DNA from: an uncultured archaeon
Lineage (GTDB): Archaea; Nanohalarchaeota; Nanosalinia; Nanosalinales; Nanosalinaceae
DNA length: 20,118 nt
Reading direction: 5' to 3'
NCBI GenBank assembly: GCA_964421955.1
Contig: CAYQYU010000015.1
Coordinates: 1 to 20,118, forward strand
Made by a program: the position numbers and the translations under genes. Positions 1 through 20,032 of the stretch are shown one piece after another. The notes beneath the pieces were generated by a model. The model was not told where the DNA came from. It made no database searches and saw only the letters and a list, made by a program, of their open reading frames with translations. Position 1 is the stretch's first letter, and every line of letters begins with the position of its first letter.

Positions 1-171
1 TGCGAGGGCGAGGATTTGAACCCCGGAACCCCTACGGGACAGCGCATCTGATCTTCCAGCTTCTCATCGGAGATGCTGGTATCGAAAACCTGGCGGTTTT
101 CTCAAACCGACACCTCTAACGAGGAATCGGTGTCCTCAACGCTGCGCCTTTGACCACTTGGCTACCCTCGC
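1..171 (-). tRNA. tRNA-Leu(GAG) with an 88-nt intron at 37/38 (intron 46..133)
   Basis: Reverse complement reads GCGAGGGTAGCCAAGTGGTCAAAGGCGCAGCGTT-GAG-G[intron]GCGCTGTCCCGTAGGGGTTCCGGGGTTCAAATCCTCGCCCTCGCA. The spliced product is 83 nt with a long variable arm. Relaxed BHB: TTGA pairs with intron TCAG, bulges GG|A and AT|G. Confidence 0.93.
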
Positions 172-218
172 ATATCTTGATGTGCTTGAGTCGAGAAGAC
201 TGAGTCTTCGACCCTCGC
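164..218. repeat. Duplicated tRNA 5' end (ACCCTCGC at 164-171 and 211-218) flanking an imperfect inverted copy and the hairpin AGAAGAC-TGA-GTCTTCG (194-210)
   Basis: Direct repeat and hairpins read directly from the sequence. Confidence 0.75.
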
Positions 219-246
219 GTTGACTAAAATAAGGGTGAGAAGCTAG

Positions 247-13534: not shown

Positions 13535-14356
13535 ATGGCTTTCCTCGAAAACCTCTTTTTCGTGTTTATTGCTGGTCTGATAACAGACCTGGCGACCGGA
13601 ATCGGTGCCCTGCCGTTCTTCTTCAAGACAGAGTTCAGCGACCGCTGGCTTGTCGGACTATGGGGGCTCGCCTCCGGTATAATGTTCTTCGCCTCGATCT
13701 TTGGATTGATACCGGAAGGGCTTAACGCTGGCGCGGCCTACACCTTCCTGGGCTCAAAGTACCTGGCTGTCGGGCTGGGTCTCGTGACCGGAGTGCTACT
13801 GGTCGAGGCTGGAAGCCGTTTCCTTGAGGAGCGTGAGATTGATCCCGGGACTTTCGAGAAGGCCACCTTCAAGAGGATGATATTGATCCTCGGCGTTTTG
13901 ACAGTCCACAGTTTTCCCGAGGGTGTCTCGATCGGTGTCTCGTTCGCCGAGATGGGGCTGGGGAACGGTATACCTCTACTCGGCTTTGCGGTTCCACCTC
14001 TAGCCATAATAATGACCATAGCAATCTCGGTCCACAACATTCCAGAGGGCGTCGCCATCTCGATACCTTTCAGGTCCATGGGCATGAGCAAGTGGAGGAT
14101 GCTTGGAGCAACAATTTTCTCCAGTTTGCCGCAGCCTATAGGAGCCGTTATAGCATTTGTGTTTGTGAGGCAGGCACGCCAGTTCATGGCCGCGGGCTTC
14201 GGCTTTGCGGCGGGGGCAATGATTTACCTGGTGCTGACAGAGTTCGTTGACGAGGCCAGAGAACAGGGCGAAAACCTTGACGACTGGTGGCGAACGTTTG
14301 CGGCCGGAGTCCTGGGCGGGCTGTTAATAATGGCTCCGTTACTAATATTCCTTTGA
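13535..14356 (+). CDS. ZIP-family (ZupT/GufA-like) divalent metal transporter
   Basis: Multiple TM helices, HSFPEG and HNIPEG metal-site motifs, FAAGAMIY. Confidence 0.93.
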   Translation: MAFLENLFFVFIAGLITDLATGIGALPFFFKTEFSDRWLVGLWGLASGIMFFASIFGLIPEGLNAGAAYTFLGSKYLAVGLGLVTGVLLVEAGSRFLEEREIDPGTFEKATFKRMILILGVLTVHSFPEGVSIGVSFAEMGLGNGIPLLGFAVPPLAIIMTIAISVHNIPEGVAISIPFRSMGMSKWRMLGATIFSSLPQPIGAVIAFVFVRQARQFMAAGFGFAAGAMIYLVLTEFVDEAREQGENLDDWWRTFAAGVLGGLLIMAPLLIFL

Positions 14357-14742
14357 TGTCAATGCAGGAGTTAGCGGGAAATCTGATATTTGAAGACGGG
14401 AAGGTACTGTTGCTCTACCGTGAGGATGAAGAGTACTGGGAGGTGCCTGGTGGAAAAGTAGAGGATACAGAGTCGCCCACCGAGGCCGCTGTTAGAGAGG
14501 CCAAGGAAGAGATCGGTGTAGAGGTCAAGCTGGAGAAACCGTTCTTCTCGGGTGAATTCCAGCACTCGGGAGAAATATTCCTCTGGCACGGCTATATCTC
14601 CGAGATAGTTGATGGAGAGCCCGAACTCCAGGAAGGAAAGTTTGAGAAGATGGAATGGTTTGAGGGCTCCAGACTCGATGAGCTGGAGCTGGCGCCGAAC
14701 CTTGAGATGATTCTGCCGGCGCTTAGAAGGGTGCTCAGGTAA
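14356..14742 (+). CDS. NUDIX hydrolase
   Basis: Nudix box [26 protein letters not shown] overlaps the ZIP stop (TGATG). Confidence 0.92.
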
Positions 14743-14935
14743 TCTTGTGCTCGCCGATTTCGTCAATCGTGTCGACGTGTGTCAGGAAGATTGTCCTGCA
14801 GCAGTACTTCTCTAGCCCAAGATCGTCGAGAACTTCTCCCGGATCTTCCTCATCTTCTTCTACACGTTCCTGGAACTCTTCCCATTTGTCTCCGATGACT
14901 TTGCCGCATGAAAGACATCTAACTGGTATCTGCAT
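14735..14935 (-). CDS. rpoN: DNA-directed RNA polymerase subunit N (Rpo10)
   Basis: [12 protein letters not shown]...[13 protein letters not shown]. Confidence 0.97.
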
Positions 14936-14950
14936 GTTTTGATTGCACCT

Positions 14951-15352
14951 TTAACGGTAGGACTTCTGCTGTTTGTGTCTCGCCCCTTTGGACGACTGGG
15001 ATGGTTTTCTCGTTTCTGTACGTCTCGGATCTTCGACAAGCATGTTCCTGTCGTACTCACGGAACTCTCGCTCGAGTTCATCGTCATCCGTGTATTCGAC
15101 GAGTCCTCGGGCGATAGCCATTCTTATGGCTTCTGCCTGTCCCTGGACCCCGCCGCCCTCGACGTTGACCTTGATCTCAAGGTCATCTACTATTTCTGCT
15201 CCAGCAATTGTGAGGGGCTCCTTGATGCGCTGCCGTGACATCTCTGGTAGCGTGTGGAGAGGCCGGGAGTTAATCCTCAGCGTCCCTTCTCCTTCCTTAA
15301 CTGATGCTCGTGCCTTCGCGGTCTTTCTCTTTCCTGTGGAGTGTACTGCCAT
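14951..15352 (-). CDS. rps9: 30S ribosomal protein uS9
   Basis: TGKRKTAKARA, GGGVQGQAEA, DPRR.E.RK and QKSYR C-terminus. Confidence 0.97.
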   Translation of the reverse strand: MAVHSTGKRKTAKARASVKEGEGTLRINSRPLHTLPEMSRQRIKEPLTIAGAEIVDDLEIKVNVEGGGVQGQAEAIRMAIARGLVEYTDDDELEREFREYDRNMLVEDPRRTETRKPSQSSKGARHKQQKSYR

Positions 15353-15780
15353 CAGTTTCGATCACCTCTTGGAGTCCAGCCTATATACCTTGAGACTTCG
15401 CCAAGCTTTACATAGTTCCTGTTCTTAAGATCGTCGCCTTCTTTTACTTCTACTTCCTCGAAGTCTTCGAACTCGTCGGGAATACCGATATATGTTTTCA
15501 CGCGGTCAAATGCGTCTCCGCCTTCAGAGGTCTTGTACGGGAGCATTCCTCTCACGGTTCTCTTCAGGATTCTCTCTGGAGACTTCGGGAAGTACGGTCC
15601 GTCGTGTCTTGAACCTCTCTCCTTTCTCTGCCGGTACTCGGCCTTGACTTCCTCTTCATCCCCGGAGATAACAGCATCTTCAGAATTAACCACTCTTACC
15701 TCTTCACCGTCTCTGGCATTTCTAGCGATTTCTGAAGCGAGTCTTCCGAGAACCCTGTTTTCAGCATTTATTACTTTCAT
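15352..15780 (-). CDS. rpl13: 50S ribosomal protein uL13
   Basis: VINAENRVLGRLAS, GPYFPKSPERILKRTVRGMLP. Confidence 0.97.
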   Translation of the reverse strand: MKVINAENRVLGRLASEIARNARDGEEVRVVNSEDAVISGDEEEVKAEYRQRKERGSRHDGPYFPKSPERILKRTVRGMLPYKTSEGGDAFDRVKTYIGIPDEFEDFEEVEVKEGDDLKNRNYVKLGEVSRYIGWTPRGDRN

Positions 15781-15834
15781 TCAAAACTCACCTGAGTTTC
15801 TGCATGTCCAGAAAATCTCTGATTTTCTGTCATT
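15777..15834. repeat. 53-bp double-hairpin insert flanked by a TCATT/AATGA duplication at the rpl18e-rpl13 junction
   Basis: TCATT at 15777-15781 and 15830-15834. Hairpins at 15782-15801 and 15809-15829. Confidence 0.75.
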
Positions 15835-16180
15835 TTACAATTCTCACCTCTGAACCTTCTGGATTTTCCTCAACAAGCTCTTCGATAAACTGGAAGCTAC
15901 CGTCCTCTTCAATTGCCTTTCTGGCGCTCCTCGATGCCTTGAACGCGGCAACATCGACCTTCTTCGTCAGACGGCCTGATCCAAGAACTTTTCCCGGAAC
16001 AACTACGGTCTCCCCGTCCTCCGCTACACGTTCGATATCGGAGAGATTGACTTCCGGCCGTTTTCTATTAACTTTTCCAAGATTTTCTCTAACAACACTC
16101 CAGACTGGTGCGTCCTGCTTTTCCAGGAGCTCCAGCGTCTCGACAAGTACGGGATTGGTTGGGTCTGCTTTCTTATCCAT
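15830..16180 (-). CDS. rpl18e: 50S ribosomal protein eL18
   Basis: TNP, VNLSDI, VVVPGKVLGSG and VAAFKAS. GAGGTG ribosome-binding site. Confidence 0.96.
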   Translation of the reverse strand: MDKKADPTNPVLVETLELLEKQDAPVWSVVRENLGKVNRKRPEVNLSDIERVAEDGETVVVPGKVLGSGRLTKKVDVAAFKASRSARKAIEEDGSFQFIEELVEENPEGSEVRIVK

Positions 16181-16284
16181 TTGATAGCACCTCGCGGCTG
16201 TGGTATGCCCGGAGGCTTTCCACTTAAGCAGATCTATTGATCTGCGGCCACTTTGCGGCTGTAGTCATCCAAACGAAGTTAAGA

Positions 16285-16292
16285 TTTATAAA
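16285..16292 (-). promoter_or_regulatory. TATA box (TTTATAAA), likely for rpl18e-rpl13-rps9-rpoN
   Basis: Consensus archaeal TATA box just downstream of tRNA-Leu(TAA) and upstream of rpl18e. Confidence 0.55.
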
Positions 16293-16300
16293 ACGAACTT

Positions 16301-16527
16301 TGCCGGGGCGGAGATTTGAACTCCGGAACCCCTGCGGGACAGGATTTCCAGCTCGAAAACCGCTCACACGATTTTCTCGGTCCTCGTTCTCCTGTGGAGA
16401 ACTTGAGGATCTTAAGTCCTGCGCCTCTGGCCCTCCATGGGCTTGGCAATCGGATCTTTCTCCGCCAGGAGATTGTCCGATAACAAACTCCAAACTCGCT
16501 GGAGTTTGGCCACTTGGCTACCCCGGC
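16301..16527 (-). tRNA. tRNA-Leu(TAA) with two introns: D-loop (16427..16505, 79 nt) and anticodon loop 37/38 (~16346..16410, 65 nt)
   Basis: Removing both segments gives the 83-nt GCCGGGGTAGCCAAGTGGCCAAAGGCGCAGGACT-TAA-GATCCTGTCCCGCAGGGGTTCCGGAGTTCAAATCTCCGCCCCGGCA. The D-loop intron has helix GGCC/GGCC, bulges AA|A and AG|A, and intron stem CTCCA/TGGAG. It lies at the conserved position upstream of rpl18e. Confidence 0.92.
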
Positions 16528-16597
16528 TCTTTGTACATAGCTACGACTATTTTCGTATTTTGTCCCCAAGTTAAAAATAGAGGTAGAATGATTCGGT

Positions 16598-17011
16598 TTA
16601 CAAATGGTAGCCAGGTCCGGTGGCGTCCTCCGCTATTCTTCCGAGCTCTTCCAGATCGAGTTCATCGTTTACGCCGTAGGGACAGTCTATTATCTCGTCC
16701 TGGAAATAGTCTAAGCCAGTTAGTTTCGCATCCTGGAGTTCGTAGTATGCTGCCTCAAGATCAGCTGCAACATCAGTTCCCAGTGCTGCCCGGTCGTGGG
16801 CGTCCAGCGAACTCGGTACCTGGCCTAGACCCATATGGTCTTCAAGTTCTTCTTCGTGTCTTACAAGCATTATGAATGTCTCATAGAGCTCCCTATCTGT
16901 TACCTCTCCATTACTTCTGTGTTCCTGGACTTTTGTCAAGAATGTGTCGATTGCGTGCTCTGCGTCTTCTTTCAGGGTTTCAACTTCGCCCTGTCTTATA
17001 TCTTGAGCCAT
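16598..17011 (-). CDS. Hypothetical acidic protein (137 aa)
   Basis: Acidic ORF filling the rpoD-tRNA-Leu gap, with a TTAAAAA box about 30 nt upstream. No recognisable motif. Confidence 0.7.
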   Translation of the reverse strand: MAQDIRQGEVETLKEDAEHAIDTFLTKVQEHRSNGEVTDRELYETFIMLVRHEEELEDHMGLGQVPSSLDAHDRAALGTDVAADLEAAYYELQDAKLTGLDYFQDEIIDCPYGVNDELDLEELGRIAEDATGPGYHL

Positions 17012-17057
17012 AGAAGTATATACTGGAGCGCAATGTTTTTTAATCTTCCTGTAGTAG

Positions 17058-17630
17058 CTACAGTGACTCTACAGCTTCCTCGAACTCGTCAAGTTCCGCC
17101 TTAACTTCCTGGATTCCGGCCTCGACAAGTTCTTCGTTGGTATACCCGGAGATGGATTCGATCCGGAATAGGTACTCTCCTTCGTCAACTTTCTCATATC
17201 CAACTGTTCCGCCCTGATGCTTTGCGTGTTCTGAACCGTGTCCGAGCCTGGCTTCTGCTTCAAACTCGAGGCCTTGGTCTTCCTTCAGGTCAACTATGAC
17301 TGTTTCCGGGTTGACCGGTTCCGCTTCGTCGTTGTCAGCCTTCAGGTCCTCGGCAAGGACTGTGCCCGGACCCTCCTGCTTTAATGCGATATGGACAGTA
17401 TCTTCCCCGTCAACATTCTCTGGGACGGTGAAGGGTATCTGACCTACGCGGTTGGCGAGAACTTCATCGAAAAGACCTGACTGGTTCTTCGTTATATCAA
17501 GGTGCTGCACCGCGAGCGTTGGAACCTTAGTCATTATTGCCCGCCTTAAAGTGTTGGCCACCGCAGCGTTCGCATCTGTCAGCCTCAGTTTTAGCACGTC
17601 GTCTCCTTCTTCCTCTATCTCTACATTCAT
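17058..17630 (-). CDS. rpoD: DNA-directed RNA polymerase subunit D (Rpo3), short form
   Basis: [52 protein letters not shown] and FRIESISG. Located after rps11. Confidence 0.96.
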
Positions 17631-18007
17631 ACTCTTCGACCTCTTTTTCCGCCCTTCGACCTGACGCCATCATGTGGCTCAGGGGTAACGTCCTCAATAT
17701 TTCCTACATCGAGTCCTGACCTGGAGATTGCACGAATTGCGGGCTGCGCTCCTTTACCGGGCATCTTCTGCTTCTGTCCCCCGGGAGCTCTCACCTGGAT
17801 GTCAACCTCGTCAATTCCTTTCTCCATCGCTTCCTCGGTCGCCTGTTTTGCGGCCTTCATTGCAGGGAAAGGTTCTCCCTGGAGCCGTCCCTTGTCAGTC
17901 ACCATTCCTGAAGAAATCCGTGAAATGGTCTCGGCTCCCGTAGCGTCTGTTATGTGGATGATAGTATTGTTGAAACTCGAGTAGATGTTAACAATTCCCT
18001 TTGCCAT
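17627..18007 (-). CDS. rps11: 30S ribosomal protein uS11
   Basis: [51 protein letters not shown]. Confidence 0.97.
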
Positions 18008-18657
18008 TATTCTTCTTCCTCCTCGGCATCTTCTTCGTTATTTTCGTCTTCATTCTCTTCTGGTTCCGCTTCTTCCTCTTCGTTCTCTAGCTCTTCTTCA
18101 GTCTCTTCCGGCTCTTCTACTCCTTCATCCTCCTTTCGATCTTCAGCTTCGTCTGTTTCGGTTTCTGGTTTCTCCTCTTTATCCTCTTCTGGTTCAGGCT
18201 CTGGAATTATTACTTCGATCTCTTTCTCCTCTTCCTGTGTCAGCATGTACCCGGGAACCGTGACGCGCTGGCCGTCAACGTAGACGTGGCCGTGAACAAC
18301 GGTCTGGCGCGCCTCTGTGACAGTATCGGTGTAGCCGCGCCTGTTGACAGCGGTCTGGAGCCTCCTGTCAAGGAAGTCTGTAACGTTTAGTGATAGTATT
18401 TCTTCGAGTTCCGCGTCATCTCTTACCAGCCCGAGCCGGTTCGCCTTGTCGATAAGTTCTCGCTGCTCCTGCTCGTTTTCGGAAGCGACCAGCTTTCTCG
18501 CCTCGCGCCTGAGATCGCGGAGCTGGCTCTGTGCCTTGTAAACTTCTCTCTTGTTCTTCAGGCCGTAGTCCTCGATCAATTTGTCCTCCCTGTTGATCCT
18601 CTCCTGGTTCCAGCCCTCGTTGGGCGTCTCGTACTGCTTTTTGAGCTTCTTTACCAT
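18007..18657 (-). CDS. rps4: 30S ribosomal protein uS4 with a long acidic C-terminal tail
   Basis: [44 protein letters not shown]. Start set at ATG 18657. Confidence 0.96.
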
Positions 18658-18797
18658 TGAACTTTCACGTGAAGTATCGGTCACTCGAAAACTCGAGAGT
18701 TTTCTGCGGTTGCAGAAGACTCAAAGAGTCTTCGAACGCGGGAACGCGTTACGCTATCGCTCCAGCGTCCTTTCTTTCTTTGATTTTAGCAATCATT
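18655..18797. repeat. 139-bp hairpin-rich insert between rps13 and rps4, bounded by CATT/AATG
   Basis: Hairpins at 18686-18705 and 18714-18734 plus smaller palindromes. CATT at 18655-18658 and 18794-18797. Confidence 0.7.
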
Positions 18798-18798
18798 C

Positions 18799-19287
18799 TT
18801 ATTCCTCCTCGTCTTCCTCGCTGCTTTCTGCAGCCTCTTCTCTCAGCCGGGCTCTTGAAACTCCAACCTTTGAACCTGACCTGAAAGATGATTTTGTCTT
18901 CTGACCTCTCACAGGCAGGCCGATCTGGTGTCTCCATCCCCGGTAAGTACCGGTTTCCTTCAGGCGTCTAATATCGAACTCTTCCTTCAGCTCGAGATCC
19001 GAGCCGATTAGGTGATCGTCCTCACCGGTTTCACGATCCTTCCTTCTATTTCTCAGCCATTCTGGGACATCGGCTTCTTCCGGATTCCTTATTATCTCTT
19101 CTATCTCGTTGATCTGCTCTTCCTCAAGTTCACCTATACGTGTCTCTTCGTCAACATCGATAACCTTTGAGATCGCGTGACCGTACATATCGCCGACTCC
19201 CTGCAGTGAAGTTATAGCCTTGCCTACAGGCTGTGTGCCGTCGATGTCGGTTCGAGCGATTCTTACAATCTCTTTTACTTCAGACAT
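18799..19287 (-). CDS. rps13: 30S ribosomal protein uS13
   Basis: IVRIARTDIDG, PEWLRNRRKD.ETG, TYRGWRH..GLPVRGQKTKS. Confidence 0.97.
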   Translation of the reverse strand: MSEVKEIVRIARTDIDGTQPVGKAITSLQGVGDMYGHAISKVIDVDEETRIGELEEEQINEIEEIIRNPEEADVPEWLRNRRKDRETGEDDHLIGSDLELKEEFDIRRLKETGTYRGWRHQIGLPVRGQKTKSSFRSGSKVGVSRARLREEAAESSEEDEEE

Positions 19288-19336: not shown

Positions 19337-19433
19337 CTATCGCTCATCCGTCTTCTTAATCAGTCGAAAATCAGAGATTTTCTCGGTGACCAGAAGACGG
19401 GTTGAGCTATCGCTCATCCGTCTTCTTAATCAG
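19337..19433. repeat. Perfect 27-bp direct repeat of the parvulin gene 3' end with an inverted copy and a hairpin in the 43-bp spacer
   Basis: CTATCGCTCATCCGTCTTCTTAATCAG at 19337-19363 and 19407-19433. Confidence 0.93.
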
Positions 19434-19691
19434 GTGCCACCCGAACTGGGTCTCTATGGGGTCAGAAACCTCTCCGACCTCAAGCTCGAAGGCCTTTCTC
19501 TCGAACGGCTTCACCATGTCTCCTCTGCCGAAGAAGCCTAGATCACCGCCGTTGTCTCCTGAAGGGCCTTCCGACTTTTCCTTTGCGAGCTCTGTGAAAG
19601 TCTTGTCGCTTCTCTCAAGCTCCAGCTTGATCTGCTTCGCATGTTCCTCGTTGTCAACCAGTATGTGGGATGCACGTACTTCTTTTGCCAT
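19407..19691 (-). CDS. ppiC: Single-domain parvulin peptidyl-prolyl cis-trans isomerase (94 aa)
   Basis: VRASHILV, FTELAKEKSEGPS..NGGDLGFFGRGDMVKPFE..AF, PIETQFGWHLI. Confidence 0.95.
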   Translation of the reverse strand: MAKEVRASHILVDNEEHAKQIKLELERSDKTFTELAKEKSEGPSGDNGGDLGFFGRGDMVKPFERKAFELEVGEVSDPIETQFGWHLIKKTDER

Positions 19692-19750
19692 GTTTATACA
19701 GCGTAGAGAAATCTTTATGATTCTAGGCCCGATAATACACGACTTTCCTG

Positions 19751-20032
19751 TCATTCCTCGTGTGATATAACGCTTAGCTGTAGATCATTTTCTCCTACAA
19801 GTCCGGAGGCCAAGATAATGTAATGAGTATTCTCTTCTAACTCTATATCAGACTCCAGAACGTTGTAGTCTTCTCCGTGTGGCCGTACTTCGATTGCGTG
19901 CTCTCCCTCGTCGAGTTCTTCAAGATCTGTCACGTCCCTGAAATCCACACTTTCGAATACTGCGTCTCCGTCCACTAGAACATCGACAGGAGGTGCATCG
20001 GGGGAGAAATGTCCTACCTGGGCCTCTGGCAT
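19751..20032 (-). CDS. DUF4397-like domain protein (~93 aa)
   Basis: GHFSPDAPPVDVLVDG matches the H.SPDAP.VDV signature, followed by L..GEH.IEVR and LEENTHY.I.ASG. Start uncertain (20032 or 20047). Confidence 0.8.
   Translation of the reverse strand: MPEAQVGHFSPDAPPVDVLVDGDAVFESVDFRDVTDLEELDEGEHAIEVRPHGEDYNVLESDIELEENTHYIILASGLVGENDLQLSVISHEE

Follow-up and report, generated by a model that had tools for sequence, protein, structure and literature searches.

The 20,118-nt stretch of DNA analysed here (the window; contig CAYQYU010000015.1 of the nanohaloarchaeal assembly GCA_964421955.1, a genome that we call G000) carries on its minus strand, at 16527-16301, a 227-nt tRNA-Leu(UAA) gene, discriminator A included, that is interrupted by two introns. 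We propose, with a probability of about 0.8 and on the strength of sequence comparison, that this locus is a functional, single-copy tRNA-Leu(UAA) gene whose introns are both protein-spliced, of the bulge-helix-bulge (BHB) type, and members of old intron families. In the proposed mechanism, the GGCC of the D-loop would pair with the GGCC at the 3' end of intron 1, placing the splice sites in AAA and AGA bulges four base pairs apart, while intron 2 would be assembled from two hairpin modules also present in further tRNA introns of the genome and in orthologues from other genera. The splicing endonuclease EndA would cut both introns, and RtcB would join the exons into an 83-nt class II tRNA.

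The initial annotation of this DNA had described a two-intron tRNA-Leu(TAA), and the structure of the gene bears this out. A scan for acceptor strands and T arms found both 7-nt acceptor strands and the T arm intact at 16527-16301. Once the three exon slices (Table 1) were joined in silico, the 83-nt product was read by ARAGORN as tRNA-Leu(taa), with the 7-bp acceptor stem, long variable arm and anticodon UAA of a class II cloverleaf. The sequence motifs on which that annotation had relied are likewise all in place on the minus strand: GCCAAGTGGCCAAA in exon 1 (16518-16505), GGCCAGA at the 3' end of intron 1 (16432-16426), ATCCT at the start of both intron 2 (16410-16406) and exon 3 (16345-16341), GAGGA at 16385-16381, and the hairpin AGAAAATCG..CGGTTTTCG of intron 2 at 16377-16354. 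No tRNA was called at the locus by ARAGORN with default settings or by Rfam at both thresholds (E up to 10); ARAGORN with introns allowed found the correct ends and miscalled the gene as Glu(ttc) with a single 138-nt intron.

Table 1. Parts of the tRNA-Leu(UAA) gene and of its two introns, in window positions and, where given, in pre-tRNA numbering (position 1 is window 16527).
Feature	Window	Pre-tRNA	Strand	Basis
tRNA-Leu(UAA) gene, 227 nt	16301..16527		-	acceptor/T-arm scan; ARAGORN with introns, same ends; spliced product called Leu(taa)
Exon 1: acceptor 5' strand, D-stem 5' strand, D-loop to GGCCAA; boundary slides by 1 nt	16506..16527	1-22	-	
Intron 1, 79 nt, in the D-loop after GGCCAA	16427..16505	23-101	-	BHB scan, fold, homologues, covariation
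GGCC, exon strand of the BHB central helix; followed by the 5' bulge AAA (16505-16507)	16508..16511		-	
GGCC, intron strand of the central helix; followed by the 3' bulge AGA (16426-16428)	16429..16432		-	
Inner helix, 5' strand CTCCA, pairing with TGGAG (16433-16437)	16500..16504		-	strict scan; covariation
Tandem duplication of GAGTTTG (two copies of 7 nt) within intron 1	16484..16497		-	repeat search
Internal hairpin of intron 1: outer stem, A-rich internal loop, inner stem TCTCC/GGAGA	16450..16480		-	fold
GCCAAG, exon-like 6-mer in intron 1	16442..16447		-	not above chance
Exon 2: D-stem 3' strand, anticodon-stem 5' strand, loop to position 37; anticodon TAA at 16412-16414	16411..16426	102-117	-	
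Intron 2, 65 nt, canonical 37/38 position; boundary slides by 5 nt (ATCCT)	16346..16410	118-182	-	orthologues in G009, G016, G010, G038
Module A of intron 2: TCCTC..GAGGA enclosing GTTCTCC..GGAGAAC	16381..16409		-	fold
Module B of intron 2: hairpin of the GAAAAYC..GRTTTTC family	16352..16378		-	fold and pattern search
Exon 3: position 38, anticodon-stem 3' strand, long variable arm, T arm, acceptor 3' strand, discriminator	16301..16345	183-227	-	

The failure of the tRNA callers, together with the weak BHB motif of intron 2 and a stable competing hairpin (both described below), might also mark a decaying pseudogene or an assembly artefact, which we regard as highly improbable. All 83 exon positions are those of intronless genes from two other genera: of 12 loci tested in relatives, two (L006 of G023 and L007 of G024) carry the identical 83-mer as an uninterrupted gene, and the others differ from it by a few substitutions. 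The initial annotation would have taken a second, intact tRNA-Leu(TAA), combined with a missing spliced product, as the sign of a pseudogene; a BLAST search with the exons found no second copy in G000, whose completeness is 98.82%, leaving this as the sole Leu(UAA) gene found. The UUA codons it would read are in use, with 559 TTA codons in 422 open reading frames of at least 250 aa. A public contig of 3818 nt from an independent assembly, which may go back to the same sample, matches 16301-16900 without a difference. A search for sequencing runs that cover window 14000-19000 found no RNA run, and three DNA runs yielded contigs without joints.

The host genome (922,649 b in 27 contigs, about 51% G+C) also encodes the enzymes that the proposed splicing would need. 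Its EndA has 179 aa and both Pfam domains (PF01974 match, 96.8 bits), and the annotations of its nearest named relatives read Candidatus Nanohaloarchaea, Nanosalina, Nanohalococcus and Nanohalobium. Between the RVY and EH motifs it is nine residues longer than its M. kandleri counterpart, and in an alignment the additional residues fall opposite loops of the enzymes from ARMAN-2 and N. equitans. RtcB is present as well (match of 554 bits). The sequences show the structure of the gene, its computed product, the homology and covariation, and the presence of the enzymes; the splicing itself, the order in which the introns are removed and the recognition of the weak motif of intron 2 are inferred.

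In intron 1 the splice motif is evident. A strict scan found, in pre-tRNA numbering, GGCC (17-20), the bulge AAA, a 5-bp helix CTCCA:TGGAG, GGCC (96-99) and the bulge AGA, that is, two 3-nt bulges with a 4-bp helix between them. When pre-tRNA positions 10-106 were folded locally and without constraint, this BHB was the minimum-energy structure. The GGCC:GGCC central helix put forward in the initial annotation is thus upheld by both scan and fold. The outer helix is a single wobble pair, with the D stem following after a 4-nt gap, and the motif, lacking a contiguous outer helix, is therefore of the relaxed HBh' form.

By homology, intron 1 appears to be a member of an old family of D-loop introns in the tRNA-Leu genes of Nanohaloarchaea. 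Its interior is identical to that of the Leu(CAA) D-loop intron of the same genome at 56 of 69 aligned positions, and to that of the Leu(UAG) D-loop intron of G036, from another family of the order, at 52 of 66; neither score was reached in any of 500 shuffles with the ends fixed. A search of 70 genomes of the order located D-loop introns at the same site in Leu(CAA) of G055, G060, G019 and G069, and a follow-up added those of G024, G067 and G009 and the Leu(CAG) introns of G010 and G050, giving 13 genes in 11 genomes. Eleven of the 13 introns were aligned for covariation. Those of G009 and G067, an intron of another type, were tried in the shared BHB register and rejected (three of four central pairs and no inner helix). 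Across the 11 homologues, 98.3% of the 121 cells of the D stem, central helix and inner helix are paired, and compensatory changes occur in five of 11 pairs, including all four counted inner-helix pairs. The covariation score was reached by none of 500 shuffles, and controls in which the register was slid paired in 33-55% of cells. The internal hairpin of intron 1 is also kept in all three long-form introns (intron 1 and two homologues), with changes in its outer stem.

The origin of intron 1 had been explained differently in the initial annotation, which saw in its 3' end a near copy of the exon. Each intron would then be a short element inserted into an intact tRNA gene with duplication of the target, the copy of GGCCAAA having supplied the central helix and both bulges of intron 1, made the insert spliceable from the outset and decayed since. 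Cleaner versions of such an architecture (target, inverted partial copy, hairpin, direct copy) do exist elsewhere, at the exact 27-nt repeat in the window, the 11-nt and 10/11 repeats of the two G010 introns and the 15-nt repeat of G069, which is missing from the orthologue in same-genus G024 (all described below), and intron 1 does hold an inverted junction copy and a 7-nt tandem duplication. Several results nevertheless make this origin improbable for the present gene. The similarity between exon 1 and intron 1 is at chance level, the best local alignment being GCCAAG alone, with a score reached by 1791 of 5000 shuffles; 1164 of 5000 shuffles contained some shared 6-mer. When the three long-form introns were searched for an internal copy of the junction, 292, 529 and 130 of 2000 shuffles reached their scores (292 being the value for intron 1), against none of 2000 for G069, the positive control. 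The boundary repeat of intron 1 is 1 nt long and does not amount to a target duplication. Moreover, GGCCAGA is identical in the homologue from another family, which argues for conservation instead of decay, and other homologues pair with non-identical letters: the intron strand repeats the exon tetramer in four of 13 introns and reads GGTT, GATC, GACC, GGCA or GTTT in the other nine, most of which still pair. Because GGCC is palindromic, its pairing complement reads as a copy of the exon. A comparable case is the D-loop intron of Gly(GCC), where an exon-like 9-mer is kept in four of five genomes (three genera) while the interior hairpin covaries, so that there, too, the apparent copy is under selection. 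We conclude from these comparisons that the exon-like 3' end of intron 1 is in all appearance a product of BHB pairing, held by selection.

Membership in an old family leaves the question of how intron 1 came to lie in this particular gene. It could have been copied from a paralogous tRNA-Leu by gene conversion through the identical D-arm flanks, and not have descended within Leu(UAA), an alternative that we judge unlikely, less so than target duplication in this gene. The Leu(UAA) and Leu(CAG) genes of G010 have different tRNA bodies but D-loop introns that are identical at 49 of 51 positions, whereas in G050, of the same genus, the orthologous Leu(UAA) site is empty and a related 32-nt intron, with GGTT, is found in Leu(CAG) only; this pattern implies copying between paralogues. 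G000 likewise has the long form in both Leu(UAA) and Leu(CAA). Among the Leu(UAA) genes of 21 other genomes, a sample and not a census, 14 have no intron, six have the canonical intron only and one, that of G010, has both. The comparison among relatives called for in the initial annotation thus yielded intronless orthologues, but all 14 come from genera other than that of G000, and their empty sites fit loss of the intron as well as gain. In addition, the two G000 copies share just the 56 of 69 positions given above, so any copying was not recent, and Leu(UAA) and Leu(CAA), which have an acceptor stem in common, could be gene duplicates that already held the intron. Within one genus (g10), Leu(UAA) has the canonical intron in G009 and lacks it in G024, which indicates that intron turnover is fast.

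Intron 2, in turn, has orthologues among the canonical introns of G009, G016, G010 and G038 and in Leu(UAG) of G006 and G002, with 73-83% identity by BLAST. It folds into module A, a 7-bp hairpin inside TCCTC..GAGGA, and module B. The module A pattern has six copies in the genome, five of them in introns of four tRNA genes (this gene, Lys-TTT, Arg-TCG twice and Thr-TGT) and one downstream of Arg-CCT. For module B we counted 31 strict-pattern sites, six in tRNA introns and 25 elsewhere, in agreement with the earlier suggestion that this hairpin family extends beyond tRNA genes. Modules A and B occur in introns of Lys, Arg, Thr, Met, Val and Leu(GAG) tRNAs, and a hairpin module with CCTC stands at the start of introns in the tRNAs for Gln, Arg, Thr, Lys and Ser, which have unrelated 3' exons; the introns of Gln-TTG, Arg-TCG and Thr-TGT begin AACCTC, and the orthologous Leu introns begin ACCCTC, TTCCTC, AACCTC or AACACT. 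For the initial annotation, the ATCCT that starts intron 2 was a copy of the start of the 3' exon. The repeat is indeed there. At 5 nt it is the second longest boundary repeat among the 31 introns of the genome, where a geometric estimate expects about 0.14 such cases. However, three of its letters, CCT, belong to the shared module, whose CCTC start is found in tRNAs with unrelated 3' exons, so the repeat falls short of a target duplication and is best read as the start of the module meeting the Leu anticodon stem.

Several observations weigh against our proposal of two functional, old-family BHB introns. The BHB of intron 2 is degenerate, with two of four central pairs at the register that yields the tRNA, and no strict BHB motif with a 65-nt span was found for it; the fold places its 3' splice site in an AAA bulge that adjoins the anticodon stem. 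EndAs of the alpha4 type are classically strict in their substrates. At full length, the minimum free energy structure (-104.7 kcal/mol) contains a competing hairpin and is more stable than the cloverleaf with the BHB (-99.5 kcal/mol). This hairpin, of 10 bp, joins the exon-intron junction (16499-16508) to the GAGTTTG repeat (16484-16497) and excludes the BHB of intron 1; the tandem duplication is absent from both long-form homologues. Finally, the long form of intron 1 was seen only in G000 and in one of eight genomes of family f4, a sparse distribution for which vertical descent needs many losses, and lateral movement of the long form may have taken place.

One further pairing was noticed near the weak motif. 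The 3' end of intron 1, AGGGCCAG (16427-16434; pre-tRNA 94-101), can pair with 16341-16351 (pre-tRNA 177-187), a stretch made up of the end of intron 2 and the start of exon 3. Intron 2 would then have its 3' splice site in an AAA bulge with a 4-bp helix on either side. The pairing is not conserved in the two-intron genes of G036 and G010 and may be due to chance.

To place the two introns in their genomic context, tRNA genes were parsed structurally from both gene ends; brute-force removal of single introns followed by ARAGORN was dropped as too permissive, since it gave hundreds of 'tRNAs' per locus. The parse yielded 31 introns in 29 tRNA genes of G000, 27 of them canonical and four in the D-loop (Leu-UAA, Leu-CAA, Glu-CTC and Gly-GCC, the last gene also having two introns). 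All four central-helix pairs are present in 22 introns, three in seven and two in two (Thr-CGT and intron 2 of Leu(UAA)). The initial annotation had called for such a survey in search of exon duplications. Boundary repeats measure 0-1 nt in 26 of the 31 introns, 2 nt in one and 3 nt in two, with outliers of 5 nt (intron 2 of Leu(UAA)) and 9 nt (the Gly-GCC D-loop intron). The Leu(UAA) gene is itself an ordinary, though caller-defeating, member of a class of multi-intron genes.

Insertion with target duplication, which the initial annotation had seen in this gene, does receive support from other loci, and the comparisons suggest that it acts in and around tRNA genes. At the orthologous Leu(CAA) locus of genus g10, where the downstream flanks agree, the D-loop intron measures 40 nt in G024, and G069 has the same intron with 53 nt added. 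The addition consists of a 38-nt insert, in which the target is repeated in inverted form together with a GAAAACC..GGTTTTC hairpin, and of the 15-mer AGTGGTCAAACTCCT in a second, exact copy; this 15-mer reaches across the exon-intron junction. Because the short form resembles introns of three other genera, G069 is more simply read as the product of an insertion. This event struck an existing intron and made no BHB, a further point against target duplication as the source of intron 1. In G010, an exact 11-nt repeat and the 40-nt insert that it encloses, laid out on the same plan, make up the whole 51-nt D-loop intron of Leu(CAG); in the near-identical intron of Leu(UAA) the repeat matches at 10 of 11 positions. 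A third case lies in the window itself, where at 19337-19433 an exact 27-nt direct repeat surrounds a 43-nt insert built on the plan of that in G069, with a GAAAATC..GATTTTC hairpin and part of the target in inverted orientation; the repeat holds the stop codon and last codons of the open reading frame at 19407-19754 (minus strand).

As a side observation on the g10 Leu-CAA locus (L042, L043, L044 and L045), three intron states are found there: a short D-loop intron together with a canonical one, an enlarged D-loop intron alone, and a different D-loop intron of 69/78 nt alone.

Copies of tRNA ends extend the pattern beyond gene interiors. Of 39 tRNA genes in G000, 10 are followed at 37-129 nt (within the 200 nt searched) by an exact repeat, 7-24 nt long, of their own 3' end, usually right after a hairpin and with an inverted T-loop copy in the spacer, and four are preceded by a copy of their 5' end; examples are C1:103712-103796, C1:122237-122333, C14:9525-9621 and C14:19225-19307. 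Cross-gene controls gave 15 of 1472 for the 3' end and 11 of 1458 for the 5' end, or about 1% (three genes had less than 20 nt of downstream flank). The Leu(UAA) gene of the window has neither a 3'-end copy downstream nor a 5'-end copy upstream. Flanking repeats of at least 8 nt were not enriched around loosely defined hairpins (17 of 111, compared with 242 of 2000 random sites); only long flanking repeats, mostly at tRNA ends, stand out. G046 was considered as an empty site for a downstream copy and rejected on account of its unrelated flanks.

Similar arrangements were observed beside tRNA-Leu genes of relatives. Two loci of one genus (L086 of G020 and L087 of G049) have, downstream of Leu(UAA), a spacer, a hairpin and a 23-nt copy of the tRNA 3' end that follows the T-loop variant of its own tRNA, TTCGAAT in one and TTCAAAT in the other, which suggests concerted change or function. 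At L006, L004, L008, L020, L087 and L057 a copy of the first 15 or so nt of the tRNA lies 40-110 nt upstream of tRNA-Leu; it is followed by a partly complementary stretch and tracks its own acceptor (GCGGGGG with GCGGGGG).

Taken with the G069, G010 and window loci, the tRNA-end copies would fit a common plan of insertion products, in which the target is followed by a short loop, an inverted copy of part of it, a spacer, a GAAAAYC-type hairpin, 1-4 nt and then the target again in direct orientation; the repeats would measure 7-27 nt, and the sites would be gene ends and the interiors of tRNA genes. An insertion at the GGCY-AA of a D-loop would be a special case, where the quasi-palindromic repeat would give the central helix and bulges, and the ends of the insert the inner helix, yielding a spliceable BHB intron in one step; Leu(CAG) of G010 is a candidate example. 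Insertion into an existing intron would enlarge it, as in G069. We therefore entertain, tentatively and at somewhat less than even odds, the idea that a templated, target-duplicating insertion process in Nanohaloarchaea both gives birth to tRNA introns and enlarges them, the long form in the Leu(UAA) gene being an old, overwritten product. If true, it would offer a concrete route by which introns of archaeal tRNA genes arrive and grow.

These introns can be set beside known systems. Multiple and non-canonical BHB introns, some with relaxed HBh' motifs, are described from archaeal tRNA genes of Thermoproteales and others (PMC4090602). The present gene agrees with them in having a non-canonical site beside the 37/38 one, 3-nt bulges around a 4-bp helix and no outer helix. 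It differs in its host, a halophilic DPANN archaeon with a single alpha4-like EndA, and in a D-loop site that uses the conserved G18-G19-C-Y tetramer as a central-helix strand, a site that G000 uses in Leu, Gly and Glu tRNAs. The same source calls the mechanism of intron transposition in Thermoproteales unknown. In the 2010 system that it cites, near-identical introns are shared across tRNA identities, as are modules A and B and the introns of Leu(UAA) and Leu(CAG) in G010; here, unlike there, a donor-recipient pair comes with an empty site in the same genus, and what is shared are short hairpin modules, found also in tRNA flanks and at the end of one protein gene.

Extra loops in the alpha4 EndAs of DPANN archaea have been linked to more disrupted tRNA genes, in a study that also predicted the tRNAs of one Nanohaloarchaeon (Kaneta et al. 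2018, PMC5829648). The EndA of G000 resembles those enzymes in its 179-aa length with N- and C-terminal domains and in a Lys-rich stretch that the M. kandleri enzyme lacks; the stretch aligns with the ARMAN-2 and N. equitans loops and may correspond to one of the loops named in that paper. For Caldiarchaeum, disruption of tRNA genes has been modelled as the work of a mobile element (Sugahara et al. 2012, PMC3293823). Intron gain alongside stray tRNA fragments beside the gene is common to both cases, but the Caldiarchaeum unit is 1.8 kb long and bears a recombinase, whereas the inserts described here are gene-free, 37-86 nt long and flanked by direct repeats of 11-27 nt. Direct repeats have also been reported near all introns examined in one study, four archaeal ones among them (PMC11782384). 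A census of tRNA introns in Asgard archaea (bioRxiv 10.64898/2026.10.13.758758) reports, in the parts drawn on here, no general route of arrival. Its D-arm introns, like ours, escape the standard callers, lie at BHB-capable sites and were gained repeatedly, while the nanohaloarchaeal loci, unlike that census, show paralogue copying and duplicative insertion directly. Judged by title and abstract, none of the publications found in literature searches on this subject is devoted to tRNA introns of Nanohaloarchaea or Nanohaloarchaeota.

How protein-spliced introns arrive in archaeal tRNA genes is unsettled, and this lineage offers material that bears on the question: filled and empty sites within one genus, paralogous introns in a donor-recipient relation, an exact 15-nt duplication around an intronic hairpin insert, and D-loop introns of Gly, Leu and Glu tRNAs in which the conserved GGCY tetramer always forms one strand of the BHB. 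Intron arrival thereby becomes testable through population genomics and EndA assays. About one tenth of the introns of the genome (four of 31) are invisible to ARAGORN and Rfam.

Some minor observations concern the tRNA complement of G000. ARAGORN with introns and our scans accounted for 39-40 tRNA genes, and the same scans turned up no gene for GTC (Asp), CCC (Gly), CAC (Val), CGG (Pro), CAG (Leu) or CCG (Arg), and only a fragment at a contig end for GCT (Ser); some of these unseen tRNAs may be hidden by non-canonical introns. At window 1-171 (minus strand) lies a tRNA-Leu(GAG) with an 88-nt canonical intron that contains a module B hairpin, its discriminator being the first base of the contig; 47 nt upstream there is a hairpin together with an 8-nt repeat of the 5' end of this tRNA. 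Box C/D guide RNAs are encoded in the tRNA-Trp intron of haloarchaea, and three long canonical introns of G000, in Trp (C2:49960-50136), Met (C6:15456-15630) and Gly-GCC (intron 2, C17:5065-5250), hold TGATGA- and CTGA-like words reminiscent of such guides. A third module, made of the hairpin CGAACTTCTGAAAGTTCG, then ATCATCA and a second hairpin, occurs in the Arg-TCT intron (C12:6784-6936), in trailers downstream of C1:102342 and of window 11973, and at C4:64779-64859, a non-tRNA site where the copy is flanked by a 17-nt direct repeat.

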